From Dendronephthya gigantea (Eukaryota), in NCBI RefSeq assembly GCF_004324835.1, contig NW_021163190.1, positions 255,242 through 319,241 on the forward strand: a DNA stretch of 64,000 nucleotides. Direction: 5' to 3'. Below are positions 21,201-63,919 of the stretch, one piece after another. Position 1 is the first letter of the stretch. Every line of letters starts with the position of its first letter. A program made the translations under genes and the position numbers. A model generated the notes under the pieces. The model searched no databases. It was not told where the DNA came from and saw only the letters and a list, made by a program, of their open reading frames with translations.

Positions 21201-24200
21201 CATAAGTATCATTTAAATGATTTTAAACTTTTAATTGCGTTTACATACGCACAAAAAACACGAAAGTGGAAGACAACCCTTAAGCCACAAGCTAATTTAC
21301 AAAGATTTCGTATTGTTTTCCTTTAAAACTTGAAATTTAAACATTCACTGAAGCTGGGAGAGTCTATGGAAAGTCTGCGAAATACAGATAATGTACAAAC
21401 GTCGACAGAATATCGGTCGACTTTTACGCTACTTTTATGACTATTTTTGGACTAAATTTAATGACGGCAGAAGTCAGTGAATATGGAGACAGAAGTTCAA
21501 TAATCAAGAGTGAATATGGAGAAGAATGTTGTGAATACCCAGAGAACATTCCAAAGAACATTTTTCTACGTCCATATCAAAACAAAGCTCGCTTGACCCT
21601 CCACCGAAACCATAAATTTCTTCATCACCTGTTCATGCCAGAGAAAAATAAGTTAATAATTTAGATTTACTGCGTATAGACAATACGTTCAGTTCTGGAG
21701 TAAAATGATAATATATATGTTATTTACCAGATTGGAGGTCTGTATAGGGAAATATTTCCCAAGGTCTCAAAAACAGCCCGAGCCCGAAGGCCGAGGGACG
21801 TTTTTAAGACCGAGGGAAATATTTCCATATACAGACCGACTAAACTGGTAAATAATAGATTTATTTTTTTTCTTGCGGTTTGAATTCGTATTTTAGCGTT
21901 GGCTCTGCGCTTTTAAATCTCGCCCGGTCCGTACGGCCTCATACGGACCGCTCGCGTAGCCAATCAGATTGCAGAAAACGCTAAAATATGAATTCGGACC
22001 GCAAGGAAAAAAAATATATCCAGTGCGAAACGTTTAGATTGTCATAAATTTTCTTTACCAGTAGAATCATATAATCGATGCGAAGAATCGAAATCCGTAA
22101 ATTCGGGAGAAAAATTACGCACCATCAAACCAGGATATGCAAGCTGTAAAAAATATTATTCATTTGAAATATGGCAAAGAGATAAAATATTTTTTTAGAG
22201 TTTCAGCACATTTAGGGACAGAAAATCATCCTAAGCTATATACTATAAATTCTACTGAAATACACGAATGTAGGTTAGGATTATGTTTTAGATTAGGTTC
22301 ATGGTTGATGAGGGTTAGCCTTAATCCTTAATCCTTAATCCTTAATCCTAACCCTAATCCACGGACATGGAATTATTAACAATTTGGGTTTGAGGATGGC
22401 AGCCAAGTTATCGTTCCAGTCTAAGTAGAGTTCAGTGTTACTTTATTAACAAACCTCATGAGCTGCGCCCAAAAGTTCATCAACATCACCAGAAGACAAT
22501 GATTCCTCCTCTGATTCATCCTCTGAGTCCTCTGATTCCCCCTCTGATTCCTCATCGTCCTCCTCGAACCCAATATATCCCAAGATATCCACATCTTCTC
22601 CATCAAGAATTTCGTCGACGTCCGGCGCAGTTGTCGAATCAAAGGTCTCGCCTTCTTCACGCTTTTCAATTGCGACAAAACTTGTGAACTTGGACGTGAC
22701 TGAGTATTTCTTGCTTATTTCAATAATATAATCTTTGCGAGACACCTTGACCGCCTGGAAAATAAGATTACAACGTCGTTCAAGAACAATTACAAAATTA
22801 AACCTCCATGAAAAAAAATTACGACAATTTTCCGTGAATTTTGATGCAAAGCCTTGTTTACACCTGCGATTTTCCCTGATGTGCGATTTTCTCCTTTCGA
22901 TAGATGCGAATGAACGAATAAGTTGCGGATGTTCATCTTAGGAGACTTATACATTAGAACATTGACAACTTTTGCTCGTTCCCATCTGTCAAAAGCAGAA
23001 AATCGCACTTAAAATTGCAGCAAAAATTGAAAGTCTAAATGGGCATAAACGTGGTGTTATAAGCATTTAGTTATAATCAAGACTAGTGTTATTAATAATC
23101 AAACAATATTGAAATACCAGCTAAAACAATAAGTGTAGTGGTTCAGCCTACACAGACCTGGTGATGGAGGTGGTCTGGGGCAAGTAATCCTTCTTCCCAA
23201 TCATTAATCAGTGCCCTGGCTGTCAGCTGATGCAAGGTTGAACCAGAGGTGATACTCAGTTCTGACGTTGAGACCATTGTTGAAATCTCCTTGCCATTTA
23301 TCATAGCTTTTAATGTCGCCTGGAAAAAACAAATAAGAGATGATCCTTACTGTACCTCTAGGAAGAACAGCTTAGAACTGATAGAGCTAACCACTATAAA
23401 TAAAGTTAGTTTAGTTTAGGTTTCCTCCTGTAGTAGCACTGGGTCAATAAGAGATGATCCTTACTGGATCTCTAGAAAGAACAGTTTAGAACTGATAGAG
23501 CTATCCAGTATAAATAAAGTTAGTTTAGTTTAGGTTTCCTCCTGTAGTAACACTGGAACAATAAGAGATGATCCTTACTAGACCTCTAGGAAGAACAGTT
23601 TAGAACTGATAGAGCTATCCAGTATAAATAAAGTTAGTTTAGTTTAGGTTTCCTCCTGTAGTAACACTGGAACAATAAGAGATGATCCTTACTGGACCTC
23701 TAGGAAGAACAGTTTAGAACTGATAGAGCTATCCAGTATAAATAAAGTTGGTTTAGTTTAGGTTTCCATACAGTTCAGATCTCCATACCTGGGTACAGTA
23801 AGGAACAAAGCCATACACCACTTGTCTCGAGCCATTGAAAAGCGATAATATTTGGCTTGGGGCCTGGATTGGAGTTGGTGCGTCATTATCAAACTGTTGC
23901 CAGGCAACAGATACTGACGTGAGGACAGGTTGTTGCGACCTCGAGATAAAAGACTCCACTTTTCTTTTCCATTTTGACTTGACTTTCTCGTCAAAGTATT
24001 CCGACGCGCCTGCGCCAACTTTTGCCAAAGTCCGCAAGAAATAACGATTTGCAGAAGAGCTATAAAATAGAAAGACATTGAATTCTAGTTTCTGCTCATC
24101 TCAACTCATTGCCGAGGTTTATGTGTTTACAATGGCAAGGAATTGGTTTGAATCCTGTTTCAAAGATTTGTTATCGAAATGTATTACGCTAGACTAACGC

Positions 24201-27200
24201 CTGTATTCTAAAAGCTAGACTAACGCCTGTATTCTAAAAGCTAGACTAACGCCTGTATTCTAAAAGCTTGACTAACGCCTGTATTCTAAAAGCTAGACTA
24301 ACGCCTGTATTCTAAAAGCTAGACCGACGCCTGTATTCTAAAAGCTAGACTAACGCCTGTATTCTAAAAGCTAGACTAACCCCTGTATTCTAAAAGCTAG
24401 ACTAACGCCTGTATTCTAAAAGCTAGACTAACGCCTGTATTCTAAAAGCTAGACTAACGCCTGTATTCTAAAAGCTAGACTAACGCCTGTATTCTAAAAG
24501 CTAGACTAACGCCTGTATTCTAAAAGCTAGACTAACGCCTGTATTCTAAAAGCTAGACTAACGCCTGTATTCTAAAAGCTAGACTAACGCCTGTATTCTA
24601 AAAGCTAGACTAACGCCTGTATTCTAAAAGCTAGACTAACGCCTGTATTCTAAAAGCTAGACTAACGCCTGTATTCTAAAAGCTAGACTAACGCCTGTAT
24701 TCTAAAAGCTAGACTAACGCCTGTATTCTAAAAGCTAGACTAACGCCTGTATTCTAAAAGCTAGACTAACGCCTGTATTCTAAAAGCTAGACTAACGCCT
24801 GTATTCTAAAGCTAGACTAACGCCTGTATTCTAAAGCTAGACTAACGCCTTATTCTAAAAGCTAGACTAACGCCTGTATTCTAAAAGCTAGACTAACGCC
24901 TGTATTCTAAAAGCTAGACCGACGCCTGTATTCTAAAAGCTAGACTAACGCCTGTATTCTAAAAGCTAGACTAACCCCTGTATTTTAAAAGCTAGACTAA
25001 CGCCTGTATTCTAAAAGCTAGACTAACGCCTGTATTCTATAAGCTCGCTCGCACTCAAACTCATTGAGTGGGAGGTCTTAAAATTCTCATAACGTTTCCA
25101 TAACGTTATTTTCAGTAGAATAGGGGCTTGATTTTCAGTGATTTACCTTCTGCCTCCAACTATTTAGAAAGAACTTTCTTATTGTCCAGCATTAACAAAA
25201 TATTTATGTCACACTCAATGAGATGAGTGTGAGTGTGCTTTTTGGATATGGGTGTATATCTCACGCTGCTTGTTCTAAGATTATTGACAAGTGTTCAAAG
25301 CCCAAAACAAAGAGATGTGCGTCCAGGGGCGTTACTAGAACGATGATTGGGGGGGGGGGTGAATATATTCATATATTCAGTTCTGCCCGACGGATTTCTA
25401 TTGTCAGCTATTGCAATTACAAAAAGAAATCCGTAGGGCAGAACTGGATATATGAATATTCACCCCCCCCCAATTATCGTTTTAGTTACGCCACTGTATG
25501 CGTCTTTTGTATCAAGTTATATCATCTTGATATGCGTTATGCCACCTTGAAAATATTCATCCATAAACACTGTAACTTACCCTACACCAAACGTGAATAT
25601 CCTGGTCTGAGCAAAGCCACTGGTTGCCAGTCTCAAAACCATCTCGGTTTCGGTCACGTGCCCATCACTGAGAACACACACGTTCCTCACGTGGACATTG
25701 GATCTCACCGGTAGTAGACTTAAAGCTCTTAAAATCTTCCAGAGATCAGTGGCTCCCATATCACTGGTGCGGTTCTAAATAGGAATGATAATGATTACAT
25801 GAAGTTTCCAACACAGCTAAAGTACGCGTTACTTTATAGTATTTTACTCTGTCTAATGTCAGATGATTTTACTCGTCAGTGGAAGAGTACTGTCAGTTAA
25901 TAAGTTAACAAAACTATCTGTCAGTGTCTCTTGTTAACCCATTAGCTTGCAATGCACCCAGATGTGGCCTTCTTTAGTATTTTACTCTGTCTAATGTCAG
26001 ATGATTTTACTCATCAGTGGAAGAGTAGTGTCAGTTAACAAGTTAACAAAACTATCTGTCAGTGTCTCTTGTTAACCCATTAGCTTGCAATGCATCCAGA
26101 TGTGACCTACTTTAGTATTTTACCTGTCTAATGCCAGATGATTTTACTCATCAGTGGAAGAGTACTGTCAGTTAATAAGTTAACAAAACTATCTGTCAGT
26201 GTCTCTTGTTAACCCATTAGCTTGCAATGCACCCAGATGTGACCTACTTTAGTATTTTACCTGTCTAATGCCAGATGATTTTACTCATCAGTGGAAGAGT
26301 ACTGTCAATTAATAAGTTAACAAAACTATCTGTCAGTGTCTCTTGTTAACCCATTAGCTTGCAATGCTCCCAGATGTGGCCTACTTTAGTATTTTACTCT
26401 GTCTAATGCCAGATGATTTTACTCATCAGTGGAAGAATACTGTCAGTTAATAAGTTAACAAAACTATCTGTCAATGTCTCTTGTTAACCCATTAGCTTGC
26501 AATGCACCCAGATGTGACCTACTTTAGCATTTTACTCTGTCTAAAGCCTGTCTAAAAAGTTGTTAAAACGTCCTTTGAACTTACTTTAACAAAAGCAGCA
26601 GCTTCTTTCATACTTTTCTCCGTCTTCTCAACACTTGACGGAAATAACTCCAACCATTGGTTTCCAAAAGCAACGATATTAAACCTAGCGTTTGCTGGTA
26701 GTTTGTTCAGGGCAAGAAGTAGAATTTTCTTTGCATTGTCAATAGAAGATCCCTGTATTGATAAAAACTCGATAAAATAGGTTTGAAAAATAAGAAAATT
26801 TAGTGTGAAGCTTGAATCTTCCATTAAACTGAACGATATGAAAGCCATGAATCGTTCCTACCTTCATTGAACAAGACACATCCAATAGGAAGACATATTC
26901 GACATTTTCAATCGGGTCTGCCTCGAATTCAGGGTAAAAAGACAACATACAAGCCTGGATAAAAACAAAAATGGCTGAAACGAAATGGCTGAACACGAAA
27001 AACAAAAACGTTTTTCGTGTCCTCATATAGGGGAAGCTTTTGGGTGGAAAAGGTGATTTTCATGAACGCGAGAAAAAACTCACAAATGCTTCAAAATCTT
27101 TAGTGATATCAGACAGTACAGTTTACAACTTTCAGAGTTTTCTGACCGTAAAAGTGCTGGACAAATGAAGCAAGAAAGAATCGCTTAATTTTAACATCAA

Positions 27201-30200
27201 AATTATGGTAATCGATCGAAGTTTGTTTCCAGAGTTTTCTCACCGTAAACGTGCTGGACAAATGAAGCAAGAATCGCTTAATTTGAACATCTAAATTATG
27301 GTAATTGTTCGAAGTTTGTTTCCTTAAAGAATACGACCAGCATGCAGATTTTCTTTATTAGAAAGTCAGAAATGATATTCAACCTGCGAGTCTGCGTTTT
27401 CGGGATGTCTCTCGGCCCACATTCGTGGAACGTGGATTTCCGCGAGACCAATCAACAATTGAAAACCATTGTCCAGTTTTTGACCTTCCTTCATCTCCAG
27501 AACCGCTTTTGTTGCTGTTTTCTGTAAGAAAGACTAGACATTTGAGTGTGTGCATGGTTGGTAGATAAGGTAGGGTGTAAAGGTGGGGGCACAGAGATGG
27601 GGGTGTAGAGTTGGGGGTACAGAATGGGGATGTAGAGGTCGGAGTGTGGAGGTGGGGGTGTAGAGATGCGGTGTAGAGGTGGCGGCTCAGAGATAGGGGT
27701 GTAGAGGTGGGGTGTAGAGGTGGGAGTGTAGAGATGCGATGCGGAGGTGGGGGATACAGATATGGAGGTGTAGAGGTACGGTGTAGAGATGCGATGCAGA
27801 GGTGGGGGTACAAAGATGAGGGTGTAGAGGTGGGTGTGTAGAGGTGGGTGTGTAGAAGTGGGGGTGTAGGGGTGGGGGTGCAGGCCACAGACCTTTAATC
27901 TAACAACGTGTGTAGGACAGTCCAGTGTTCTTATATCGAACGGCATCTCAACAGCAATGTGAACAGAAAGATCACAAGAATCATCATCACGAGCTTGAAA
28001 ACTCTGAAGAACATTCTATAGTACGGAAAACACCACAGTTAATTTAGAGGAAACATCAACTAAACTAACTTTATTTATACTGGATAGCTCTAACAGTTCT
28101 AAACTGTTCTTCCTAGAGATCCAGTAAGGATCATCTCTTATTGATCCAGTGTTACTACAGGAGGAAACCTAAACTAAACTAACTTTATTTATACTGGATA
28201 GCTCTAACAGTTCTAAACTGTTCTTCCTAGAGGTCCAGTAAGGATCATCTCTTATTGATCCAGTGTTACTACAGGAGGAAACCTAAACTAAACTAACTTT
28301 ATTTATACTGGATAACTCTATCAGTTCTAAACTGTTCTTCCTATGAACTTCACTATCGATCATTACAAAAGTAAACTATACGTAAAATCGTACTTGTGTG
28401 CTTTCTTTCAGCGCCTGATCACGTGACCATGGTGCGAGGGAACCGGGGAGACTGAACACTATATTCTCATCTTCAACAGCAAGCTCAGCAACGTACGTTA
28501 TTTTGATCAAGACGGTCGCTCCGGGAGGGATATTACCAACACTAACCGTAAACACATCCTGCGATGAAAACAGACCAAAATACATAAAATATTCTCATCT
28601 ACCGATGTTTCAGAATATCTCGCCAATTTTTTAAAAAAAACTACATGCGGACTACCAAACTTAACCAATGATAATCAACCGATTATTGGGGAAATTAAAA
28701 GTGTCAGAAAACCTACTGAATCGATATCAAAATCACTAGGTCTTGCTTGGTCGGGAGACTATGATTCACTTAAACTGTTTGTTGCTGAATCACTAAGGTT
28801 ACAGGGTACCTGGACTCAACCTGGCGGGGATAGAAAAGTGTTTAATTTTTACTAAAGCAATAAGATGATGACGTGAACTTACTGGCGTCTCCTCGTCCAT
28901 CAAATAAGCCCCATGCCCCTCGCTGATGGCTTTCTTGTACTCCTTGTGGGCTTGTTCTTTCTCCTTTACTTCACCAACGATATGTTTACCATTGATAAAT
29001 GCCTCAAAACCACACACTAGAGAAAGATAGTTTAGTTTAGGTTTCCTCCTGTAGTAACATTAGATCAATAAGAGATGATCCTTACTGGATCTCTAGGAAG
29101 AACAGTTTAGAACTGATAGAGCTATCCAGTATAAATAAAGTTAGCTTAGTTTAGGTTTCCTCCTGTAGTAACACTGGATCAATAAGAGATGATCCTTACT
29201 GGACCTCTAGGAAGAACAGTTTAGAACTGATAGAACTATCCAGTATAAATAAAGTTAGTTTAGTTTAGGTTTCCTTCTGTAGTAACACTGGATCAATAAG
29301 AGATGATCCTTACTTGATCTCAATAAAAAAATCTTGAAAAAATAAGAAGATTTAAATCTATACCAGCAGCCATGTCATCCAATGGAAAAACATATTTGGC
29401 TTCAATTGGTTTGTCACTTGAATTCTTATAAACTTGCATGACAACAACTTTCGCACAGAGGTCCAAAAGTTTCGCTCTAATATGAACGGACTTTAAAGGC
29501 ACCAAGGTGTCTCCATCAGATCGCAATCCTGGTTTCACTTTGGTCAGTGGATCTTCAAGAGCCTCGATATCAGAGGTTGTAATATTTGGAGCAAATTCTT
29601 CTTCATCCGATGATGACATTGCTTCCTCGTCAAGAGAAATTGCTGTTGTGGGTTCAACGAGAACATCTTCACTAAAAATTGTTGGGAAAAGAGAGATGCA
29701 AAATGTCTTTCTCTGAAGGCCAATATTTCTTGCAACTTGCAATGCAATTCTACTTTTGAGAGATCTAAATTTGGCCACCAGGAAACTTTTCTGTTTATTA
29801 CACTCCACGTTCGTTTCTTACACTTACATTTTGAATACTCTGTACTAAATCACATGTCTTAAAAGTAGGATTGCATTGCATTAAGTTGCAAGAAAAATTG
29901 CACCGTGAAACACAACCTCGTTAACGCACCGTCTTGAGCACAAAAGACCCTGGGAACGAGGTAAGCGTGTAACACGGCTTTGACCTCGCTTGAACCTCGT
30001 TCCCCGAGCCCACGATTCCTCTGGCGAGAAAACAAAGGCTCTGGGATAATCTGAACCGGTTTGTAACCGTTTTCTGTATTTCAAAATTGGAACGGCGTGA
30101 ACGACTAATCAGAATAACTTCTGTTCAGGAATTTCCTTAACAAATCATTCAATATATATTCTTTCTTAGTACGATACAATAAAAATTTTTTACCGTTAAT

Positions 30201-33200
30201 CTATACATTTTTCTGTAATCTCAGGTCAATAGCGATGGTTTACAAGCAAATTTGTGGCGCTTTCTTGCTATATGGGAAAGCGAAAATCTTTCATTAATCA
30301 TAACCCTGATTTAAACCATTATTGAAATATTTGAAAAATGATTGTTTATATTCTTGTTTGCTTCTACAAAGAATCAAATTTCTAAAAACTAAATGTTTTG
30401 AAATTTAGGAACCACTTATTACGAGTTTTGTGCCATAGTTCTTTGCGAAAAACATGCATAAAATTACATGATCTACAATTACAATGCATAAAATTACATG
30501 ATCTACAATGATACATATCTACAATCAAATATTTTGAATATCAACTCCAAATAGTTCATATTATGATTATGGCGATATTTCACATAAACGAGCTAATCAA
30601 CATCCTACGTCAATTTTCACACAACAACAGCAGTGGACATCCATCTTCCTTGAGACATTTCTGGAAGTTCTTCCCAAGAATACCTTTCAAAGTTGAAACC
30701 TTCAACTGACTTCAGCATTCCTTGCCCACCCCACCCTCCCAGGACTACAATGTTGTTTTCAATAACACCTGCAGTACATGTACTCCTCTTACATCTCATT
30801 GATGGCAGCATGTGACTTTGTTCTGTCTTGACATTGTATATGATAACTGTATTTAATGTGTTGCCATGTTTGTCATCACCACCAATAACAACAATGTTGT
30901 CTCCCCATCTCACAGTTGCCATGAGACTCACCTCATACGGCAGTGGTGACAACTGTTTCAGCTCATTCTTCTTTATATCGTACAGTACGACACTGCTGAG
31001 GCTGTCTTTGTAACCGCCAGTTGTACTTCCACCAACTATCAACAAATTATCATCAAATATTTCCATGCTGTGATATAGTCTTGGTTCTGGCATTCTTGAT
31101 AAGGTCTTCACAGTATAGGGAGGAACAAGCTGGACTGCTCTGATCAAGTCAGAGAAACCATTTCCATTACCACCTCCAGAGACTATCAACTGATCATTAT
31201 ACAGCACACTGCTGTGGTCTCGCAACTTCTCAGGTAGTTTAACAGCACAGTCACTCCAGTGTGTTGAGAGATCAGGGTTTGGGTCAATATTCATTCTAAT
31301 CATATCATCAACACTGCCAGACCCACCACAGTCACCCCCAGCTATAGTCATATGATTGTTATAAATAAATGAAGTCGCTCCAAATCGTTTCTTTGGCATT
31401 GATTGTAATGGTGACCATGTTCTTTGACGCCAGTTAAACATCTCTACAGAGTTAGTCAATTAACCTCCAGCAACAATAATATTTTCCTTATCACCACTTG
31501 GTCTATTTATTACTTTTCTTGTGTTTTCCTCTATCTTGCCCTCCATCGTGAAAAGAACGTCCTTCATTTCATCAAAAGCTCTGACCAAAGCTGTTTTCAA
31601 TCCTTTGACTTCGTTGTTAACCGCTTCGAGTTTTCCTTCCATATCTGATTTCATATCTGCTTTTAAATCCGCAGTATTTTTGTCTATTTTTCTCTCTAAA
31701 TTTGTTATTTTAGTTTCAATTGTTATATTATTCTGCGCCATTCTTTCCTCCATATCTGCCAAAGTTTTCGTCATTTCTCCGCACGAGTGACACTTCAACT
31801 TTCGGAATTCACAGACTTCATTTTCATGGTGAATAAGATCACACTTGTTGACAATTAAACCACAGCCTTGGTTTCTACAAACGGCTGGTGTATATCCACA
31901 TGTATCTTCATGGCGGTCAAGATGCTGTAATTCTACAACTTCTTGACAACCTCTGTCGATGTAAACGCAACGAATTTTTGATTCATTCAAATAATCTTTT
32001 ATCATTCTTTGTGGTTCGGCCAAAGTCTCTACGGTCAGTTCATCAGCACACGTTGGGCATGTTTCAGAATTTTCCAGATGTTTCGTAATGCAACAACGGC
32101 AAAAAGAATGCTGGTTTCTCGAACACATAACCGGCTCTTTCAAGACATTGAAGCAAATCTGACAGAGGAAATTTTGATTGATTTTGTCCACAAACCTTTC
32201 TTCATCGTAGCCTTGTATGTATGAAGCCATATTTCACGTCGTTCTTGTGTCGTAATAATAAAGCAAGTTCTGTGTTGTTTGTAGCTCTGTAGTATAAACC
32301 TCGCTGTATAGACTGAATATAGATACAGTGTTCGTTCTTGGAGAAGTCTGTGTATTTGCTTGAAATCTTTTGATCGGTTTAGAAAATGGAGACAAATATT
32401 GCTTCCCCTTCGGTAAGGTGTTTAAAGCGTCTTTATGAAAAAAAATATATTTTTGTCAGGTCTTGTGACGAAAGGTCATCACCTCTTGTTCAAATACTGA
32501 CTTGCAATTGGTTGTGTTTTAGTGTATATATTGGCAGGAATTTCTTATATCATTATATGGAAATGAGTTCGAAGAAAACGATACTTTAAACCAAGAAATA
32601 TCAATCATAATAATGAAATATTTAGACTAGAAATATCAATCATAATAATGAAATATTTAGACTAAGTCTAAGTACATTGTAATCGATGTTGATAAAGTCT
32701 GCATCAGAATTTGTCTCAAATCTTTTACAAAATCATGTGTTAAAACATACAAACTGCCTTTATTTTAAAATATTTCACACAACGCTACACAGACTGACAT
32801 ATATTTTGTTTAAAATATCGCAACGGGTGGTCGCCAGGCAATATTATTATTGGTTTCAACTGGTTTTATCAGTGAGGGTTTTTAATTGCAGTGTTTTAAC
32901 GTTTTAACAGTCGACTAATTCCTAAGTATTAAGACGTGTCTTACTGACGTTTGTCGTAGCTTATTTGCTAGAAAAAAATGTCGCCATTATGAAATTTTGC
33001 AACAACTTTGTTGCAAAATATCAGGATTTGTAATTGTTCAGCGAAATAATATATGAGAATGATATTCCTCGGTCTGTTGTATAAAAAGGTATTGAATCAC
33101 AATTGGTCAATCACAATTCCGTATTCTGTAGTTAACTACGATAATTATCTGTCGCATTGCATTGGATCAATCCTTTTATATAATTTAAACTCACATTCGC

Positions 33201-36200
33201 TCTTGTCAGCTTACTCCGTACAATGTATATAGCTCAGTGACCAGAGCTGTTCACGTCATCGCTCATGACGTAATGTTTGATTTCTGAAGGAAGCCTGGAA
33301 GTCTGGTAATTGCTAAATTCTTCTCAACTGTCCCAAGGTTAGGACTTAAAACTATATAAATTTCACTCGATTTTCCATCAACCAAAAACTCACACGTAAA
33401 AATGGTTCGATTCGACTCAAATGAAAAATAATTTTGCCATTTGTACGAGAGTTTTCCTACGAATTTAGAAATAACTTTGTAAGAAAGTGTCTTTATAACC
33501 AAACTTATCCATGCAAAAAGGAATAAAAATATTGACAATGGATCGTTTAGGGATTTCCTTAATAAATCATTTAATATTTATTCTTTCTTAGTACGATACA
33601 ATATGAAAATTTTTACCATTAATCTATTTACAAACATTTTGCTGTAATTTCAAGTAAATAGCGATGGTTTACAAGCAAATTTGTGGCGCTTTCTTGCTAT
33701 ATGGGAAAGCGAAAGTCTTTCGTTAATCATAATCCTGATTTGAACCGTTATTGAAATATTTGAAAAATGATTGTTTATATTCTTGTTTGCTCCTACAAAG
33801 AATCAAATTTGTCTAAAAACTAAATGTTTTGAAATCTAGAAACCACTTGTTACGAACTTTGTGCCATAGTTCTTTGCGAAAAAACATGCATAAAATGACA
33901 TAATATATCTACAACTAAATATTTTGAATATCTACTCTAAATAGTTCATATTATGATTATGGCGATACTTCACATAAACGAGCTCATCAACATCCTACGT
34001 CAATTTTCACACAACAACAGCAGTGGACATCCATCTTCCTTGAGACATTTCTGGAAAATCTTCCCAAGAATACCTTTCAAAGTTGAAACCTTCAACTGAC
34101 TTTAGGTCTCCTCCCTCACCCGACCCTCCCAGGACTACAATGTTGTTTTCAATAACAACTGCAGTACATCCCGACCTCTTACATCTCATTGATGGCAGCA
34201 TGTGACTTTGTTCTGTCTTGACATTGTAAATGATAACTGTATCAAATGCATTGTTATGTTTGTCAACACCACCAATAAAAACGATTTTGTCTCCCCATCT
34301 CACAGTTGCCATGTGACTCACTTCATACGGCAGTGGTGACAACTGTTTCAGCTCATTCTTCTTCATATCGTACAGTACGACACTGCTGAGGCTGTCTTTA
34401 AACTTGTGAGTTGTTCTTCCACCAACGATCAACAAATTATCATCAAATATTTCCATGCTGTGATATCTTCTTGGTTCTGGCATTCTTGATAAGGTCTTCA
34501 CAGTATAGGGAGGAACAAGCTGGACTGCTCTGATCAAGTCAGATGAACCATTTCCATTATCACCTCCAGAGACTATCAACTGATCATTATACAGCACACT
34601 GCTGTGGTGACACAACTTATCAGGTAGTTTAACAGGACAGACACTCCAGTGTGTTGAGAGATCAGGGTTTGGGTCAATATTCATTCTAATCATATCATCA
34701 ACAATGCCAGACCCATCACAGAGACCCCCAACTATAGTCATATGATTGTTATAAATAAACGAAGTCGCTCCATCACGATTCTCTGGCATTGATTGTAATG
34801 GCGACCATGTTCTTTGACGCCAGTTAAACATCTCTACAGAGTTAGTTTTATAACCTCCAGCAACAATTATATTTTCCTTATCACCACTTGGTTTATTTAC
34901 TTCTTTTCTTTTGTTTTCTTCTTGCTTGCCCTCCATCGTGATAAGAACGTCCTTCATTTCATCAAAAGCTCTGACCAAAGCTGTTTTCAAACCTTTGACT
35001 TCGTTGTTAACCGCTTCGAGTTTTCCTTCCATATCTGCTTTTATATCTGCGACAGCGGTACTTCTTGCCATATTCCTCTGTAAATTTGTAATTTTAGTTT
35101 CAATTATTACATTATTCGTCTCGATATTTCCCATTCTTTCATCCATATCTGCCAAAGTTTTCGTCATTTCTCTGCACGAGTGAGACTTCAACTTTCGGAA
35201 TTCACAGACTTCACTTTCATGGTGAATAAGATCACGCTTGTTGACAATTAAACCACAGCCTTGGTTTGTACAAACGGCTGGTGTATATCCACATGTATCT
35301 TCATGCCGGTCAAGATGCTGTAATTCTACAACTTCTTGACAACCTCTGTCGATGTAAACGCAACGAATTTTTAACTCATTTATAAGATCTTTTACCATTC
35401 TTTGTGGTTCGGCCAAAGTCTCTACGGTCAGTTCATCAGCACATGTTGGGCATGTTTGAGAATTTTCCAGATGTATCGTAATACAACAACGGCAAAAAGA
35501 ATGCTGGTTTCTCGAACACATAACCGGCTCTTTCAAGACGTTGAAGCAAATCTGACAATGAAAATTTTGATTGATTTTGTCCACAAACCTTTCTTCATCG
35601 TAGCCTAGTATATATGAAGCCATATTTCACGTCGTTCTTGTGTCGTAATAATAAAGCAAGTTCTGTGTTGTTTGTCGCTCTGTAGTATAAACCTCGCTTT
35701 ATAGACTGAATATATATACAGTGTTCGTTCTTAGAGAAGTCTGTGTATTTGCTTGAAATCTTTTGATCGGTTTAGAAAAGGCAGACAAATATCGCTTCGG
35801 TATAAAGTGTTGAAAGCGTCTTTTGTTGACAGGAATTTGTAGTATGAAAAAAGATATTTTTAACATGTCTTCATTGTCTTGTGACAAAAGCTCAGCATCT
35901 CGTATTCAAATACTGACTTGCAACTGGTTGTGTTTATATTGGTAGGAATTTCTTATTTCATTATATGGAAAGAAAAATCAATCATAATAATAAAATATTT
36001 AGACGAAGTACATTGTAATCAATGTTGATAAAGTCTGTATCAGAATTTGTCTCACATCTTTTACAAAATCATGTGTTAAAACATACAAACTGCCTTTGTT
36101 TAAAAATATTTCACACAACGCTACACAGACTGATATATATTTTGTTTATAATATTGCAACGGGTGGTTGCCAGGCAATATTATTATTGGTTTCAACTGGT

Positions 36201-39200
36201 TTTATCAGTGAGGATTTTTAATACCAGTGTTTTAACGTTCTAATAGTCGGCTAATTCCTAAGTATTAAGACGTGATTTACTGACGTTTGTTGTAGCTTAT
36301 TTGCTACCGAAAAATGTCGCCATTATGAAATCAGGAACTACTTTAAGGAAATTATCAGGATTTGTAATTGTTCGGCGCATTATTGCGAGGAGAGTCCAAA
36401 TAACATCATCTTGGAAACTCAAGATTTGAGTTCGTAGAACTCTCGTTATGTTTCGACTTTATTCCAAAGTTTTTGTCCATGGGTTTGACAGTGACTTTGG
36501 AATAACAGATTTTCTTCTTTTGATGGATGTGATCGAGTTGATAAATTAGGAATGCTTGAAATAAGAGCAATTGTATACACAAAGCATTCATAACTATTCA
36601 CTCGTTTCCATCTGTCACTTGTCGCTTTGCGAATATATGTGAAAAGACTGATAGCCTGGTTTTTCGCCTTTGCTTCTACCCGCAAATTTTAGGGCGGGTG
36701 AAACGTAGGTCTGTGTTCAGGCTAAATTCACCGGCGAAGTCCGGTTTTCATTTCATCGTAATTGTCGTGAAGAAGTCATTTTCACCGATGAGAAATAGTC
36801 CGGATGTAAATTTGTCTTTATTTCAGTGTTTAAATCGGTCATTGTCGACTACACACACATAGAGATACTCTCAATCACATCAAACACCTTGACATGTTCA
36901 CGACACTCACGAATAAACGGAAACCAGAAGCCAGGGGCCGGTTGTTCGAAAGGCGTTTAGCTTAAACGGTGGATAAGTTCAAAAAAAAAAACCAAATTAA
37001 CAATTTATTGAACAACTGAGCTGAAATATTTCGATGTAAATAGTTTAATTGTCAATGGAAGTACACATTGAATGCATAAGATGCAGGTTCAGTCATTCAC
37101 AAGATGTATTAGAGTATTTTTAAACTTTGGCTTATCCACCGTTTAAGCTAAACGCCTTTCGAACAACTAGCCCCAGTTGTTCAAAGCTGGGTTAGCGCTA
37201 ACCCTGGGTTAAATTTTAATCCACTTTTAAGTGCTTCAGAGCCGCTGTTCGTTTTAAAATCTTTACAAAATATGGCTTTGCCAGTTCAGAAAATGTTTAT
37301 GGAAAAGATATTCAACTTTGTGAACAAGCGATGAAAAATATTGATGTAAAGATTTTCTTTAACCAAGGGTTAGGCTAACCTACTTTTGAACAACTGGTCC
37401 CAGGCATAAATGAAATTCAGCCCTTAGGAGCTGTTGTTGAACGATGGTTAAAGGATTAGAAATTGATTAAACACGCACCCAGGCCCCTCTCCTCCTACCT
37501 TCCACGTCCAATGACAGTATCATCGATGATGACATCCGTTACATCGTCTTCTGGTAAACTAAACTCGACCAAATATCGAATCCTTTGTTGGTTGACAGAG
37601 TAAACAACATATTCGTCTTCTTCAAATTCTGATGGACAAGAATTTGGTTGGTTTTTGACACCGTGACAGCTCTGGTAGCCATCGGGCGCATGCTCCAAAT
37701 CATAGGTGAATTCTGTGAAGTCCTGGAAACGAAAGACCAATTCATTATTGAACATGCGGTCAGTAATGAGAGTAGTTGACTTTCTCCAAGTCTCGCTCAA
37801 AATGGTTTTAGATTTTGATAGGTCTATCCGCGGTAATTTTGAGATCAGTGCGTACTACAGATCTCAAGATTACCCTGGATAGACCTATCGAAATCTAAAA
37901 CCATTTTGAGCGAGGCTTGGAACAAATCTATGAGACTAGTGGATATTGAAACTGAATGAAGAGTTTGTGATGATTTGTGATGGTGCTATAACTCTGTCTC
38001 TGAGTTACCAGCCACGCAAGATGTAAGACTTGCTTTACCACTGTGGGAATCGAACCAGCGACCTTTGCTTTGCTAGTCCACCTCACGTGATGGACAATCA
38101 CAATTCACCTTATACCCACATTCACTATCACTTTAAGACACACAGGTATGGCAGGGACTAGATCAGTTGAACACCGCAGAAATTGGTGTTTATGAAGTTT
38201 CAAGCCGGAAATCTATAAACACTGGTTCGCAATTGTGCATTTCTGTATCGCTATCAAAGAGAAAACTATTGAATAACTTTGAAAAGTTCAATTTTTCTTC
38301 TAAATACGCATTCTGCAATCTTTTGACAGCTCATCATACACATCTGACAGCTGTGAAATGGCCATTTTGAGGCTTGAAGTATACACAAGGTTATTAATTC
38401 AGACGATTCGTTTTTGCCATGTGCAAGCTTCAAATCTTTTGTGCAAGACATATTTTGCTCAGTATTTATGCAGCGGTTTTCTCACCAAGTTTGAAGCCAA
38501 AGTACTGAGAATTGCAGGTTAGTCTTACCAATTTTTGCGGTGTCAATTATTTGACTTTCAGAGTCAAAGATAGATTCAGCAATTAAAAATAATAGCTATT
38601 TACCTTGACACGCCCTAACGCAACCTCGCATATGAGAAGTAACCGTGTTCCCCGAGTTTTTCCTGGGGACGAGTACTTCACACTCGTCGTCGCATCCGAA
38701 CCGAAGTAGATTCCAGTCCCCAAGTTACCAGCGTCCGAGCGCTCACCTCCGAAATCACGGACCACAATTTTGGGGGGAAGAAGACCCCGGGATAAAATAC
38801 CCAGGAAATTTTGCGCTTTCGAGGAATGGAAGAGTTGACGAATGTTTCCAAGATGGGATTCGAAATGCGCTGACTCGGCTGGACGTTGGCATGAAAATAT
38901 GTTCTGTACTTTGATATTCCTAGAAAAAAATGTATAAATAAAGTTGTCTTAGTTTAGGTTTCCTCTTGTAGTAACACTGGATCAATAAGAGATGATCCTT
39001 ACTGGACCTTTAGGAGAATAGTTTAGAACTGATAGAGCTATCCAGTATAAATAAAGTTAGTTTAGTTTAGGTTTCCTCCTGTAGTAACACTGGATCAATA
39101 AGAAATGATCCTTACTGGACCTCCAGGAAGAACAGTTTAAAACTGATAGAGCTATCCAGTATAAATAAAGTTAGTTTAGTTTAGGTTTCCTCCTGTAGTA

Positions 39201-42200
39201 ACACTGGATCAATAAGAGATGATCCTTACTGGACCTCTAGGAAGAACAGTTTAGAACTGATAGAGCTATCCAGTATAAATAAAGTTAGTTTAGTTTAGGT
39301 TTCCTCCTGTAGTAAAACTGGATCAATAACAGATTATCCTTGCTGGACCTTTAGGAAGAACAGCTTAGAACTAAAATAAATCTTAGAGGAACCTATGTGA
39401 TTTCAATTTTAGGAGAAAATAGCTGGCAAATATTTCCTTACCTGGTCGAGGATGACAGCACTTTATTGACAATGTTCAAGTATTCGTCTGTTGTCTTCGA
39501 AAGACTTTCAAGATGACAACCGCACGCTTTGTATTTTGCTTCGTCGCTGCTTCGCGTTGAGAAATTCGTCGCTTCGTTTACATTTAAGATGTCTTTAATT
39601 AACTAAAGAAGAATAAAAATTAGCCTCGATAAATTGGAAATCTATTTTTAATATTTTGAGTATTTTATTATATACCTTTGGGGGAAAAATAGTCAAATTT
39701 AACCAAAATATTGTCGATATAAAAAAGAGCGGGAAAACTTCCGTCAATTTCCGGAATGATACGAGAACTTCCCGCGCTTTCCGATACTAACTCGCGGCCT
39801 TTGATTGGCTTAGGAACAGATTTCACTTGTTCGCTTGACCAATCAGATTATCTGTTCGGTAATGTTAGCCAATCAGAACGTACCTGACAGAGATCCTGTT
39901 TTTCTGCAATAACTCGCTTTGTTTTAATTTCTTTCACGTATTCCTCGTTGTGTGGAACGAGCGAGTAAAACTCCTGAGAATATTTCCCCAAATTTTCATC
40001 CGAAGCATCGCCTTTGTCGAGAATTTCTCGAATAGCTTGCAATACTCCTTCAGCTTTTGAGATATCTTCCAGTTTGAGCTGTTCAACCGAATCGCTGAGT
40101 AGAGAACTCAGCTCTCCGATCGCTTCAGACGAGATGCTGTGAACAAGCGCCTTCACAGGAGGAGACAGATTTTCTTTGTTCAATACTTCACTGGATATAT
40201 TGTTCTGAAATGAGTCAAAATACAAACTTAAAATCAGTAAGCTCTGTTCTAAGCTGTTCTACCTAGAGGTCCAGTAATGATCATCTCTTATTGATCCAGT
40301 GTTACTACAGGAGGAAACCTAAACTAAACTAACTTTATTTATACTGGATAACTCTATCAGTTCTAAACTGTTCTTCCTAGAGGTCCAGTAAGGATCATCT
40401 CTTATTGATCCAGTGTTACTACAGGAGGAAACCTAAACTAAACTAACTTTATTTATACTGGATAGCTCTATCAGTTCTAAACTGTTCTTCCTAGAGGTCC
40501 AGTAAGGATCATCTTTTATTGATCCAGTGTTACTACAGGAGGAAACCTAAACTAAACTAACTTTATTTATACTGGATAGCTCTATCAGTTCAAAACCTTT
40601 TCATGACTTACAGAAATCATTTTATGCGATCCAACACCAGGAGGAAAGGCTGAGAATTGCCGACGGTATTCGGGCTGTTGTTGTGAACAGAAAAGGGAAT
40701 ACAATTGCTCAGCAGTATCGGAGTTGTCGGCAAAACGACATTCCTTTTTGTCAGGTTTCTCATTCACATCAATTCCCTGAAAGAAAGCAACGTTTTAAAT
40801 GAAGAAAATAAAATTCAAACTACAAAATTACCGCGAAAGCTTACACTACAAGAACTTAAATGTAACCTACTGGGGCTGGTTGTATCAAGCCCGTTTAGCT
40901 TAAACGGTGGATAAGTCAAAATTAAATAACACTTTTACACTGAACTCTCTTGAATGAGTCAACTTGAATTCTATGCACTGAATATGTAGTTGTAAACAGT
41001 ATCTTTGTATTAAGGTTAAAAACATTTAGTTCGCTTGTTAAATAATTCGATAAACTTGCTTTTTATTTTGAACTTGTCCACCGTGTAAGTTAAACGGGCT
41101 TGATACAACCGGCCCCTGTACACTGAGAGATAATGCTAAGCCAAGAAGAAGCTGTTTTAAACGGTACAATCTAACAAGTTCTCCGCTTGTCAAACCTTTT
41201 GAAGGATTCCAGAATGAGAGAATATACGATGACTTGGATGTGATTTTTCGATGTCAATCTCACCTTCCTTGGCAGTACTGATATGCAGTTCAATAGCGAC
41301 AAAACGAAACAAACCATTTTTGTCAGATTTCTAGAAAATATTTAAGTATTCCTTGTTAGTTTACGGGTCAGGTAATCCGTTTTCAATCTTCATCAAAATG
41401 CGTGTCCATGCAGTAGTCACGTATAGCTTAGCCTAGAGCTAGCCTTTCAAGCGAAGAAACTTTCTATAACCGGTTATTTAAACGATATTGGAGCAAGTTA
41501 GCCGTTAGTTAGTTTTGAGATTTGTGTGGCGTTACCTTGTGGGCAAAATTTAAGAGGAAGTTACCTTAAACCACGAATGTTTAACGATTTCAAAATCATC
41601 AGATGGAAAGAAAGGAATAGACTCGTTATCTTGATTAAACTGATAAACCCTACGGTAGAAAAGTACATTTGAAACGTCAAACTATTACAGAAGGAAAATA
41701 TAGGGGAAATTATATGCATTCTACGAATACGGCAGGGGCCCGGCGGTTGTATCAAGCCCGTTTAGCTAAACGGTGGATACGTTCAAAATAGAAAGCAAGT
41801 CTGCCGTTTTATTCAACAAGCAACTAAATGTTTTCAACCTTTAATACAAAGATAGTGTTTACAATACATATTCAGTGCATAATATTCAAGTTGACTCATT
41901 CAAGAGAGATGTAAGAGTGTTATTTAATTTTGACTTATCCACCGTTTAAGCTAAACGGGCTTGATACAACCGGCCGCAGGTATACACAGTTTTTGAACGC
42001 GAACTTTTTCAAAACAAAACAAATTTCAGTTGTAAATTTCTTCGCGTAATAAATTTGGCGCCAACGGATAAACCCAGTGCGCTGATTGGTCAAAAATTGG
42101 CGGGCAATTACTAAACGAGCCGCGCTGATTGGTCGAATTTAGTCCCCCGTGATGCCTGACGACAGCAAGAAAGAAGAACACTTCGCAAACTCGAAATTTC

Positions 42201-45453: not shown

Positions 45454-48400
45454 CTAAAAGTGAAGAAACAGGTAACGTAAATAAACTGATAAATAAGCAA
45501 GTAAACAAAAACAAGTTATGGAAAACAAATAAACAAACAAACAGAGGAATACAAGAACAAATATTCTTCATTCAAACCTCCAATGTTTTTCCACTCTTCG
45601 ACTTAATGCAATCTTTTCACCAATTTCCGTACAGACAGGTTGTGTCAACACGATCTTTGCCAAATCAACTTTGACTGCGAGAACTCGACCACCAGTTGAT
45701 AGTGAACCAATGTTGACCATCAGAACTTCGTTTTTCGCTAGTTTTTGAACCTGGATAAAGATTATGGAGGAATCAATATTCATCCAATGTCACCACAGGA
45801 GGAAATCTGATCAATCCAGAATAGCTTTACCAGTTCTAAACTGTTCTTCCTAGAGGTCCAGTAAGGATCATCTCTTATTGATCCAGAGTTACTACAGGAG
45901 AAAACCTAAACTAAACTAACTTTATTTATACTGGATAGTTCTATCAGTTCTAAACTGTTCTTCCTAGAGGTCTGTTACATGATACATAATATCATGTAAT
46001 TAGATCGTATAATAATATAGAGTCATATACTTAGCTAGTATAAATATATATACCTTTTAGTTAGTTAACCTTATTCTCGCAAGACTTACATGCATGAGTA
46101 AGCAAAATAGGTATAAGCATGAGCAGGCAATAGCTATGTCCACGCCTAACCGCAAGTGCGTAGCTTGGTGTCAACCACAAAGCCATGGTAGCATGCGCTA
46201 CAACGCTCTGAATTGCGTAGGGGAAATTACTTGTTGTTTTGCAGTTTCTCTTAGCAAGCGTATATAAGTCGATCCGAGCGCAAATAGATATAAGCAAGCG
46301 ATTACAGCCATTACAAGATGCCATAACTGACGATGCTAATTTAAGCTGACGGCTGACCAAATGAACATTATAACATAGATGGATGTATGATGGATTTTCA
46401 ACTATGGAGCTATTCACTGTTACTCTTACCAGATAAGTTAATGTTAGGAAATAGGATATTGTTAATGTGCTTTGTAAAGTTTAAGTTGTTTATTGCTCAC
46501 TATAATTCACTAAATGTTTTAAAATGCTCAACACTGTTCTCATTTTTTGTTCGTTCTCACCGGCGAACGTAACAGGTCTAGTAAGGATTATCTCTTATTG
46601 ATCCAGTGTTACTACAGGAGGAAACCTAAACTAAACTAACTTTATTTATACTGGATAGTTCTATCAGTTCTAAACTGTTCTTCCTAGAGGTCCAGTAAGG
46701 ATCATCTCTTATTGATCCAGTGTTACTACAGGAGGAAACCTAAACTAAACTAACTTTATTTATACTGGATAGCTCTATCAGTTCTAAACTGTTCTTCCTA
46801 GAGGTCCAGTAAGGATCATCTCTTATTGATCCAGTGTTACTACAGGAGGAAACCTGAACTAAACTAACTTTATTTATGCTGGATAGCTCTATCAGTTCTA
46901 AACTGTTCTTCCTAGAGGTCTAGTAAGGATCATCTCTTATTGATCCAGTGTTACTACAGGAGGAACCTAAACTATTTTATCCAGAAACATTTAACATCAC
47001 ATATTGTATGTTTACTCTACCTTGGCAGCTTTTTTGTCACCCTCTGTTCGAACACCCAGCAACCTCCTCAACAAGAAATAACTGATTTCCAGTTCTGTGT
47101 AGATTTCTGGCAACGCATCAGCTGCTCCCAAAACCTTACCAAAGAAAATAAAATATTTTGTCAAAAGGAATTGAAAGCTGTAAATAATGAAACCTAAATG
47201 AAATTCTGTACTTACATGGCCAACCATTCTGTCAGCTCTGCAGAGAGTTGGGTCAATTTTCGTTCCAACACCTGGTTTATAATGAAGATAAATGATTATG
47301 AAATGCTGCTTTTTACATGTTTTAATGCAATGGAAATTTGATCAGATATCCCCCAATGCTCGAGTTGTCTGACACAAAAGGTCTACATGTGTCTTGGGTA
47401 AAGTTTGACAGATCTTTCTGCAAAGAGTTGGGTCAATTTTCGTTCCAACAACTAGCTTAAAATGAAGATAAATGGAATATGAAATGCAGTTTTTCACATG
47501 GTTTAAATGGAATGAAAAGTTTGATGAAATATCCCTGATACAAAAGACATGTTTCTTGGGTAAAGTTTGATGGATATTCTTACCAATTAGTCCACCAGGT
47601 ACGGCGTACTGAAGATCATTTTGTTCGGCGAACAACGAAACAATCACAGAACAGATTGGTTCCCAACGCAGTTTTCCTTTCTCATCTTTGGAAACAATGC
47701 CTGGACGTACTTCAATCTCTTGACCAACCTAAAATGTTGAATTAGAAATGAATGAAAAGTATAGACCTGCTTCAAATCAGACCTATTGCATCCTTTAAAG
47801 TTCTGGTAAGAGTAATAATTTAGTAGAGCTTTGTAGGTGGAGCTATCAATTGTACGCATTTCCACAACAATGTAAACTTGGAGTAGCTGGGAAGATCTCA
47901 AAGAAGCTGGTTAATTCGACTTGTTTGTTATGGAATGGGGACAGCAAAAAGTGATCAACCATACCTTTAAGACACCTTGGAGAATGCTTCCTCCAGCAAC
48001 ACCTCCTTTAAGGTCTTGTACTTCGCATCCAGGCTTATTCACGTCAAAAGAACGGATCACTGAAATCAAGCAAGTATTTCAAGGTTTAAATTGTGAATAA
48101 TTCTTCAACCAAAGCAAGATACAGTTTCATTACACCATTCATTCAACTGCAAATGATTCTACAGTATTTGGTTATAGTCATGTTGGTCAGTCATCTCACC
48201 AATGAGCCTTGGTTGTGATGTGAAGTCTCGTCTTGGGATGGGTATTTTCTTGCAAATATATTCACAGATGACTTCAATGTTGTATTTCAACTGCGCCGAG
48301 ATTGGAACAACTGGAGCTCCTTCAGCAACTGTACCTTTGGTAAGGATAACACACAAAATTATATTTTGTTTCAAACTGTTCTTCTAGAGGTTTAGTGAGG

Positions 48401-61158: not shown

Positions 61159-61574
61159 CCGCCTCTGGAAATGGAATTTACTGTGGATGTAACATTAAAT
61201 ATTCTAAACATGCTACAAACGTGTGAAACTTCTAGCAATAAATTTTATTATTTTAATAATTTATTGTACCTGAGGATGGCCGCGCTATTGACATAATTTT
61301 TCTGTCTTCCAAATACTACAGTATTTTGATAATAATAAATGTATTTTATTATTTCTGGTTTCTTCTGTGGCAATATCATTGAATGAAGAGTATTTAGAAT
61401 ATTGTGAATGTTTTATCAGTTGAGATTATGTACAAACATAAATATGTCTAATGTTTACTAAGTCATTTTCTGCAGTCCATTGCTCAAGTCAGACATAACC
61501 AATGCCTACATCAATACAATTTCCTGATAAATATGTACTCTCTCATATTTCCAACATTATAACAATTTTCTCAG

Positions 61575-61925
61575 TTAATAGTTAACAAAACTATCTGTCA
61601 GTGTCTCTTGTTAACCCATTAGCTTGCAATGCACCCAGATGTGACATACTTTAGTATTTTACTCGGTCTAATGTCAGATGATTTTACTCATCAGTGGAAG
61701 AGTATTGTCAGTTAATAAGTTAACAAAACTATCTGTCAGTGTCTCTTGTTAACCCATTAGCTTGCAATGCACCCAGATGTGGCCTACTTTAGTATTCTAC
61801 TCTGTCTAATGTCAGATGATTTTACTCTTCAGTGAAAGAGTACTGTCAGTTAATGAGTTAACAAAACTATCTGTCAGTGTCTCTTGTTAACCCATTAGCT
61901 TGCAATGCATCTGAATGTAATCTAT
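61575..61925. repeat. SatB array (about 2.4 units)
   Basis: SatB homology. Confidence 0.9.
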
Positions 61926-62149
61926 TAAGACATTAAGTTATGTTTCTTCATTTTTTCACTGTCTATTATTGACCAATCTCATGATGAAGCACCCCACAGT
62001 TCCTGTCAGCTCTCATTCGTCTGATCATCGCCTGGTGCCTTCTTCTCATTGTGTGTTCCTAAAATGTCCTTTTCAACCTCTTCTAGACTGATATTTTTAT
62101 CATTCAAGGCCTTCTACAAAACAAACAATAGGAAATCTATCAAAATTAT

Positions 62150-63039: not shown

Positions 63040-63260
63040 AAATCTGGCAATAATAATCCATGCTCAGCAAATCCTAATCCACGAATTTAATCCATGAGAT
63101 TAAGCTAGGATTAATTCAGGTTTTGTTCTGATTGGTTCTGATTGCGACTTCTGAGAATCTGAGCAATCACAGAATTCTCAATTTTTTATTTTATGGTTAC
63201 ATTTAGGATTAGGGGTGTGACTAATCATCCACAACCTAATCTAAGCCCTAATCCGAACCT
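63040..63260. repeat. degenerate telomere-like island (aatcctaatcc..., ttaggattagggg, ccctaatcc, cctaatc) flanking a central pair of CCAAT boxes (ctgattggttctgattg), directly upstream of the MSTO1 start
   Basis: Seen directly. Confidence 0.5.
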
Positions 63261-63915: not shown

Positions 63916-63919
63916 GTCT

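Follow-up and report, generated by a model that had tools for sequence, protein, structure and literature searches.

Several described protein families come close to the genes that we report here. TRIM5 and the fish finTRIM and btr proteins combine a RING, a B-box, a coiled coil and a B30.2 domain, and are encoded in lineage-specific tandem arrays with frequent pseudogenes. The nematode MATH-BTB and F-box proteins and the plant F-box-Kelch proteins are expanded families of Cullin-ligase adaptors that evolve under positive selection, by birth and death. RNF151, RNF41 (NRDP1) and PDZRN3 are not known to carry a Kelch propeller, and each exists as a single-copy gene in vertebrates. Here, we describe a pair of head-to-tail genes, copy A and copy B, in a 64,000-nt stretch of the octocoral Dendronephthya gigantea (contig NW_021163190.1), which we call the window and whose numbering is used for all coordinates. 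Each gene encodes a RING, putative TRAF-type zinc fingers, a coiled coil and a Kelch propeller in one polypeptide, and copy B is interrupted by a premature stop codon. We consider it probable that the pair is a two-gene array of a diversifying, TRAF-like RING-Kelch ligase family in birth-and-death turnover, in which copy B is a young null.

Comparison of the window with itself by blastn reveals two duplicated blocks (Table 1) with 86.9% identity, counting gaps, over 2968 columns. Judged from the alignment, a 2.9-kb match of such quality is not due to chance. The matching points of the two copies lie 3336–3431 nt apart, start to start, varying with the indels. These values agree with the earlier note on this DNA, which had described a 3.43-kb tandem duplicate of an intronless gene with conserved flanks of several hundred base pairs, measured here as 494 nt (3′) and 813 nt (5′). 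A scan for open reading frames (ORFs) recovered copy A as the intact 538-residue frame that had been claimed for it. Copy B appeared as two abutting minus-strand ORFs, one of 256 residues (31460–32230) and one of 280 residues (30617–31459), and its protein is 85.9% identical to that of copy A and collinear over the whole length (tblastn). The indels between the copies are all in frame, −3 and +2 codons, both within the coiled coil, and the terminal codon is TGA in each gene. A tblastn search with copy A returned only A and B, and no third copy, in the 64-kb window.

The age of the duplication was estimated from synonymous and flanking divergence. By the Nei-Gojobori method, A and B differ with a synonymous divergence (dS) of 0.097 and a nonsynonymous divergence (dN) of 0.075. 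The 3′ flank is 93.1% identical, with a Kimura two-parameter (K2P) distance of 0.073 over 452 aligned nt, and the 5′ flank is 90.8% identical, with a K2P distance of 0.099 over 727 aligned nt. Identity in 150-nt windows along the duplicated unit ranges from 84% to 97%, and there are no long identical tracts. Since dS is 0.097, the flank distances are 0.07–0.10 and long identical tracts are lacking, the duplication is of moderate age, with about 7–10% neutral divergence, and has not been recently homogenised. The earlier description of the duplication as recent is thus apt only in a relative sense: the flanks are indeed conserved, but a neutral divergence of 0.07–0.10 per site is not that of a very recent event. 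The distal part of the 5′ flank (32700–33043 and 36040–36377) is about 93–96% conserved, with a more indel-rich stretch between it and the block next to the ATG. This distal block could represent a promoter; alternatively, it could be an untranslated first exon with an intron of the 5′ untranslated region behind it.

A protein search with copy A against 5.8 billion proteins gave 1698 matches. The best 120 of the 1698 are 514–631 residues long and 67–74% identical to the query, which 118 of them cover completely (P0001 covers 84% and P0066 98%). The named matches among those listed come only from Paramuricea clavata, where they are annotated as 'RING finger 151-like', 'NRDP1' or 'kinase'. Family members are often found on common contigs, with 5–8 per contig among the matches listed. 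A second subfamily, 34% identical to copy A, has the same architecture, and its named members come only from P. clavata, with annotations such as 'TRAF6-like' and 'PDZRN3-like', and from Dendronephthya gigantea. A library grouped into clusters at 50% identity yields 276 matching clusters (E ≤ 1e-30), of which about 25 are full-length at 35–49% identity. Head-to-tail arrays of 2–4 uninterrupted ORFs, spaced by 3–5 kb, are present in four other assemblies (L001, L003, L004 and L005). Copies A and B fit this family in their full-length collinearity, domain order, intronless coding sequence and head-to-tail arrangement, and by these features the pair in the window is a small array of the large RING–zinc finger–coiled coil–Kelch family. 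The suggestion that such architectures belong to lineage-specific expansions of putative E3 ligases is borne out by the 1698 matches, of which every named one is from an octocoral, and by the tandem arrays elsewhere. No description of the family was found in the open-access literature searched, and it is apparently undescribed.

We compared the copy A protein to Pfam and to the sequences of the Protein Data Bank (PDB), and built an AlphaFold2 (AF2) model on 100 family sequences. The RING finger matches zf-C3HC4_2 with 31 bits, over the cut-off of 27. It is followed by two C-x-C-x11-H-x-C zinc-finger units, whose eight ligand residues are all invariant in 100 sequences. Using phmmer, the N-terminus matches the RING and zinc fingers of TRAF6 (residues 5–113, E 1.5e-8) and TRAF5 (residues 10–143, E 6e-8), and the C-terminus matches the Kelch domains of KLHL20, KLHL2/3/12, IVNS1ABP and KEAP1. 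The predicted local distance difference test score (pLDDT) of the model is above 90 in the propeller and 75–91 in the RING and zinc fingers. The helical segment between them (residues ~146–248) is modelled with low confidence, as expected for a coiled coil predicted as a monomer. Superposition of the propeller model by Foldseek onto KLHL12, KLHL20, KLHL3 and KEAP1 gave target template modelling (TM) scores of ~0.9 and a root mean square deviation (RMSD) of ~2 Å. A Pfam scan at E ≤ 0.01 gave no match to MATH, BTB, BACK, B-box or SPRY domains. Because there is no MATH match and a Kelch propeller stands at the C-terminus, the protein is best described, from its sequence and model, as a TRAF-like module and not as a TRAF, the propeller replacing the MATH domain. 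The RING/TRAF zinc finger/coiled-coil/Kelch architecture proposed earlier is upheld by the Pfam matches, which comprise a RING, weak Sina/TRAF zinc fingers and Kelch repeats.

The propeller of this family combines a conserved scaffold with highly variable loops. We defined hypervariable columns from an alignment of 118 homologues, A and B excluded, in which most columns are nearly invariant and a small set is highly variable. In the Kelch domain these columns directly follow each GG doublet (258–259, 301–307, 355–357, 403–409, 453–459 and 501–506) and recur about 30 positions later in each blade (282/284, 338/339, 386/387, 437, 484/485 and 528–532). In the AF2 model every one of them falls in a loop, either the BC loop that follows strand B or the DA loop that leads into strand A of the next blade. 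The comparison with KEAP1 used the human sequence and the literature list of Nrf2 contacts, with a numbering that is self-consistent for 16 known residues. Ten of these 16 contact residues align directly onto hypervariable columns: Y334 onto 258, S363 onto 284, Y525 onto 453, Q530 onto 458, S555/A556 onto 484/485, Y572 onto 501, F577 onto 506 and S602/G603 onto 531/532. For the remaining six, the automatic alignment mis-registers blades 2–4, and the variable columns are reached only when the GG doublets are brought into register by eye. As KEAP1 contacts coincide with hypervariable columns, the variable residues are predicted to decorate the face by which Kelch adaptors bind their substrates.

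The differences between copies A and B are concentrated in these loops. The two genes differ at 25 of the 42 hypervariable Kelch codons versus 13 of the 247 scaffold codons (Fisher p 8e-16). At the hypervariable codons dN reaches 0.54, a value 5.6-fold that of dS overall (Fisher p 4e-11 in the comparison with synonymous sites and 1e-14 in that with the flanks). The scaffold has a dN/dS ratio (omega) of 0.25–0.41 in the Kelch domain, with 0.47 in the N-terminal half, while the overall ratio is 0.78 and that of the Kelch half 1.09. Among nine neighbouring paralogue pairs from five assemblies, eight have a hypervariable dN/dS above 1 (range 0.9–5.6), and scaffold omega is 0.16–0.47. These ratios indicate purifying selection on the scaffold. 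In the A/B pair, local dS is elevated at the hypervariable codons (0.24–0.36 versus 0.06–0.10); the other eight pairs do not show this consistently. We favour diversifying selection on the loops, because the synonymous divergence is not consistently raised beyond A and B; short gene-conversion tracts may contribute some of the differences. Targeted hypermutation of the loop codons was considered and rejected, as synonymous divergence at these codons is not consistently raised over the nine pairs.

Translation of copy B in one frame gives an in-frame stop after IIVAGG, as had been noted. The codon, placed earlier at about 31458, lies at 31460–31462. It is a TAA directly following the first GG doublet and aligned to the TAT of Tyr258 in copy A. 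In the codon after it all three bases differ (AAA in A, TTG in B), such that four consecutive nucleotides are changed at the site (TATAAA versus TAATTG). Column 258 is the most variable of the whole protein, with 19 residue types and an entropy of 3.9 bits, and the codons around it are nearly identical in DNA across species. The stop does align to a TAT codon, but a change from TAT to TAA is just one possible direction, because codon 258 is hypervariable and the next codon differs at all three bases. The stop removes the propeller from the 256-residue ORF, which retains the RING, zinc fingers and coiled coil as described previously. Reassignment or readthrough of the stop codon was also rejected: each copy terminates in TGA, position 258 is a sense codon in the family, and recoding is unsupported.

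We next consider how long copy B has been disabled. Differences between A and B were polarised by the family consensus at positions where it reaches at least 80%. This assigns 18 derived residues to A and 9 to B, an asymmetry that is not significant (p 0.12), with 8 and 3, respectively, in the Kelch part. The derived changes of copy A include C147S (codon 35183–35185), a serine in place of a 98%-conserved cysteine of the KCHSCGE motif, which follows the second zinc finger; in copy B the cysteine is retained. By these counts, the intact copy A is not the better-preserved copy at conserved sites. In the Kelch scaffold, copy B has 4–5 derived replacements by reading of the table (3 at a consensus of at least 0.8) and copy A has 8–9, where about 28 would be expected in copy B had it been neutral since the duplication (Poisson p 2e-7). 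The 95% upper bound on a neutral period is ~40% of the branch. Copy B thus carries a disabling mutation on a scaffold without relaxed constraint (omega 0.25–0.47, and fewer derived changes than A). Since the propeller scaffold shows no decay, copy B appears to have been a constrained gene for most of its history, and the stop to be young, or an allele or an error.

Disabled members also occur in other assemblies. The four-member array in L001 includes one copy with a frameshift near codon 483. In L010 (positions 4001–5617; ENA ERZ25073802, ctg15005), a family copy is intact except for a stop at the conserved Gln277 (SPLQS to SPL*S), which leaves a 277-residue RING/zinc-finger/coiled-coil ORF and a 243-residue Kelch ORF. 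Together with the damaged members described below, these sequences indicate that disabled copies are a normal feature of the family. Two copies with a single nonsense codon have been seen, copy B at the hypervariable 258 and the L010 copy at the conserved Q277, a sample too small to call an enrichment.

We propose that the RING and zinc fingers of these proteins would recruit an E2 enzyme, that the coiled coil would oligomerise the protein, and that the top face of the propeller, formed by the BC and DA loops, would bind the target and vary between paralogues under diversifying selection. The family would then be a germline repertoire of substrate or ligand specificities, evolving via tandem duplication, divergence and loss. 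Copy B would be a casualty of this turnover, having acquired a nonsense codon at the most variable position well after the duplication. It would be either a pseudogene of very recent origin or a null allele segregating in the population, and no special function need be invoked for its truncated product. E3 activity, oligomerisation and ligand binding by the variable face are functions that we infer from homology and the evolutionary pattern, and on the same grounds the family is likely to act in innate immunity or in the recognition of non-self. A more specific proposal, which we put forward tentatively as a possibility, is that the family constitutes a germline-diversified recognition repertoire of hundreds of self-contained E3 ligases whose top-face loops are directed at proteins of pathogens or of non-self origin. 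It would be the functional equivalent, in cnidarians, of TRIM5 and finTRIM, and nulls such as copy B at diversifying codons would give rise to presence/absence polymorphism between individuals.

Several points weigh against the reading of the pair as a diversifying array with a young null. The restriction of the family to octocorals is read from the named subset of the matches. The zinc fingers score under the curated Pfam cut-offs, with 18.4 bits for zf-TRAF and 23.7 bits for Sina_ZnF over residues 81–156. The hypervariable site class was taken from amino-acid variability, which is independent for A and B and makes the ratios of the other eight pairs partly circular. The consensus used for polarisation comes from other species at ~70% identity. 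The stop of copy B is known from the assembled sequence, in which a real stop, an assembly error and a heterozygous allele look alike. Short-tract gene conversion with paralogues would likewise concentrate differences at variable codons, and the local dS of the A/B pair is raised.

This last point leads to the rival that survives best, although we regard it as somewhat unlikely, namely that the clustered differences reflect patchy gene conversion with other family members and not positive selection on point mutations. Conversion would account for the multi-nucleotide differences inside single codons, as at TATAAA versus TAATTG, and for the elevated local dS; and because framework codons are near-identical in DNA among paralogues, its tracts would be visible only at the variable codons. 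However, the rise in dS is inconsistent in the other eight pairs, and the 2.9-kb unit diverges at a fairly uniform level, lacking long tracts of identity or of high divergence. Conversion also only redistributes variation, and the loop diversity across the family would still need diversifying selection.

It is unlikely that copy B is intact in the organism and that the TAA stems from a mistake in base calling or assembly, or represents just one of two alleles at a heterozygous site. The TAA is the sole defect in 1614 nt with in-frame indels, the scaffold is conserved at least as well as that of A (9 derived residues versus 18), and Kelch scaffold omega is 0.25–0.41, all of which would suit such a reading. 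The site, however, lies outside any long homopolymer (GGTTAATTGAC). Substitution errors are uncommon in polished assemblies, which speaks against a base-call error, and the otherwise intact family copies with a single nonsense codon or frameshift in other assemblies make a real young null unremarkable.

The earlier note had also suggested that the truncated copy could act as a dominant-negative. We find it improbable that copy B yields an expressed 256-residue regulator, maintained by selection, that would join full-length paralogues in oligomers. In its favour, copy B retains an intact RING, zinc fingers and coiled coil, a premature stop in an intronless coding sequence should not trigger exon-junction-dependent mRNA decay, and propeller-less ORFs of similar length recur (272 residues in L006 and 277 in L010). 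SPRY-less TRIM5 isoforms are reported to act as dominant negatives, providing a precedent. But the Kelch-coding DNA past the stop is fully preserved, so that a short form has had no time to come under selection and bears no trace of it; the short L006 copy, at just 58% identity and with its propeller decayed, is degenerating rather than conserved; the stops of L010, L006 and copy B are at different codons; and the N-terminal half of copy B has derived changes at the conserved sites 84, 119, 130 and 137. Such a role is possible in principle, but the data give it no support and do not require it. Finally, that copy B already died at the time of the duplication, as a pseudogene whose differences from A are neutral decay, would suit the overall dN/dS of 0.78 and the 1.09 of the Kelch half, but is rejected as barely credible by scaffold omega and the Poisson test: the high ratio is due entirely to the 42 predefined hypervariable codons, only 4–5 of the ~28 expected scaffold replacements are seen on the B branch, B has no frameshifts, and A has more derived changes than B. 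A young null in a diversifying array is therefore the reading that we retain, and gene birth and death routinely yield duplicates with a stop, which call for no special explanation.

Table 1 Features of the RING-Kelch gene pair and its host gene, in window coordinates.
Feature	Position	Strand	Basis
Copy A coding sequence, intact, intronless, 538 residues, stop TGA	34007–35623	−	ORF list; end-to-end match to full-length homologues
Copy A RING finger, residues 23–61	35441–35557	−	Pfam zf-C3HC4_2 E 2e-7; phmmer TRAF6 RING-ZnF 3hct/7l3l E 1.5e-8
Copy A two TRAF/Sina-type zinc fingers, residues 88–140	35204–35362	−	C88, C95, H107, C111 and C118, C123, H135, C140; TRAF5 match, residues 10–143
Copy A helical/coiled-coil segment, residues ~153–245, length-variable in family	34889–35167	−	AF2 long helices; variable columns 166–195
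Copy A six-bladed Kelch propeller, residues 250–538, hypervariable BC and DA loops	34010–34876	−	Pfam Kelch_1 E 3e-30; AF2; Foldseek
Copy B, coding sequence collinear with copy A, one premature stop	30617–32230	−	tblastn 85.9% identity over 540 columns; alignment
Premature TAA in copy B, aligned to TAT (Tyr258) of copy A, directly after first GG doublet	31460–31462	−	Alignment
Remaining ORF of copy B, 256 residues, RING, zinc fingers and coiled coil, without propeller	31460–32230	−	ORF list, Pfam
Duplicated block 1, copy B and conserved flanks	30123–33043	−	Self-blastn
Duplicated block 2, copy A and conserved flanks	33545–36377	−	Self-blastn
Unshared spacer between the blocks, roughly 0.5 kb	33044–33544	.	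Self-blastn: no match
Host ORF, PARP regulatory domain	39848–40225	−	Pfam PARP_reg E 4.6e-9; homologues in other assemblies
Host ORF, last part of PARP catalytic domain	37495–37800	−	Pfam PARP positions 168–198/199, E 6.5e-5
Host ORF, start of VIT domain, downstream of both RING-Kelch genes	29320–29808	−	Pfam VIT E 3.7e-9

The ORFs on either side of the pair suggest that it resides within another gene. On the minus strand, PARP_reg, PARP and VIT matches follow one another, which we take to be the established domain order of the vault PARP (PARP4); the PARP match, at 23.0 bits, is under its curated cut-off of 26.7. Because copies A and B both sit between the PARP and VIT exons, they occupy, by these domain assignments, an intron of a PARP4-like gene of the same orientation. 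In two other assemblies with homologues of the PARP_reg and PARP exons, a damaged family member follows within ~1 kb, and in L006–L009 the homologous PARP exon immediately precedes a family member. At this position the L006 member is on the same strand, 58% identical, and has stops and a decayed propeller. The members in L007–L009 are on the opposite strand with a frameshift at codon 139, and that of L007 also breaks at codon 276.

A 114-bp unit occurs in the window as short tandem runs of 2.6–4.8 units, 94–97% identical, at no fewer than 11 dispersed sites and in both orientations (9794–10336, 23332–23767, 28047–28343, 29023–29321, 38932–39372, 40246–40596, 45821–45972, 46574–46974, 48373–48578, 55241–55788 and 60715–61053). 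Several copies are in introns of the PARP4-like gene, on both sides of the RING-Kelch genes, and the runs look like a mobile satellite-bearing element. Other tandem arrays consist of a 77-bp unit in 16.9 copies (97% identity) at 48800–50100, a 26-bp unit in 33 copies at 24188–25045, a 138-bp repeat at 25837–26548, 59965–60276 and 61571–62757, and a G-rich 14-bp minisatellite (GGGTGTAGAGGTGG) at 27573–27880. Complex internal direct repeats of 0.3–0.8 kb, 74–92% identical, are found at 11242–17639, in a region of higher GC content (0.44). Towards the end of the window, an ORF on the plus strand (63193–63951) has a Misato segment II tubulin-like domain (E 2e-25) and probably represents exon 1 of a Misato/MSTO1 homologue. 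Two minus-strand ORFs of 146 and 194 residues (100–540 and 4460–5044) have no Pfam match and by eye are paralogue-like, being alike in their hydrophobic N-terminal stretches and C-terminal ends.

The family context of the pair is worth recording, as it joins a TRAF-type ligase module to a Kelch propeller with a fast-evolving predicted binding face, in octocoral tandem arrays. If the targets were indeed foreign or non-self proteins, the family would add a new candidate repertoire for innate immunity or allorecognition to a group in which few receptors are known, and its intronless, modular genes would make it easy to test.

Comparison with the described systems indicates which parts of this architecture are shared. 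Like TRAF6 and TRAF5, the proteins have an N-terminal RING, then putative TRAF-type zinc fingers and a helical coiled-coil segment. Unlike them, they have a six-bladed Kelch propeller in place of the MATH/TRAF-C domain and only two complete zinc fingers, together with the conserved KCHSCGE half-motif, while the genes are intronless, arranged in tandem arrays and present in very many copies. RNF151, RNF41 (NRDP1) and PDZRN3 also share the N-terminal RING and TRAF/Sina-type zinc fingers, and their names have been given to Paramuricea members; these automatic names reflect N-terminal similarity only. The propeller has the fold of the KLHL proteins and KEAP1, and its variable positions match those of KEAP1 substrate contacts, behind the GG doublets and in the DA loops. 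However, the family lacks BTB and BACK domains, and ligase activity would come from its own RING and not from Cullin-3. The nematode MATH-BTB and F-box and the plant F-box-Kelch families are likewise large lineage-specific expansions of a substrate-recognition part of the ubiquitin system, whereas the octocoral family holds ligase and recognition domains in one polypeptide. In this respect TRIM5 and the fish finTRIM and btr proteins resemble it, as RING E3 ligases with a coiled coil and a C-terminal recognition domain bearing hypervariable, diversifying loops. They differ in that the octocoral proteins have no detected B-box or SPRY/B30.2 domain, recognition falling instead to the Kelch propeller, and in that an antiviral or immune role is one that we only infer for the octocoral family. 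The family is a variant of a known theme, that of expanded E3 ligases with a hypervariable recognition domain.

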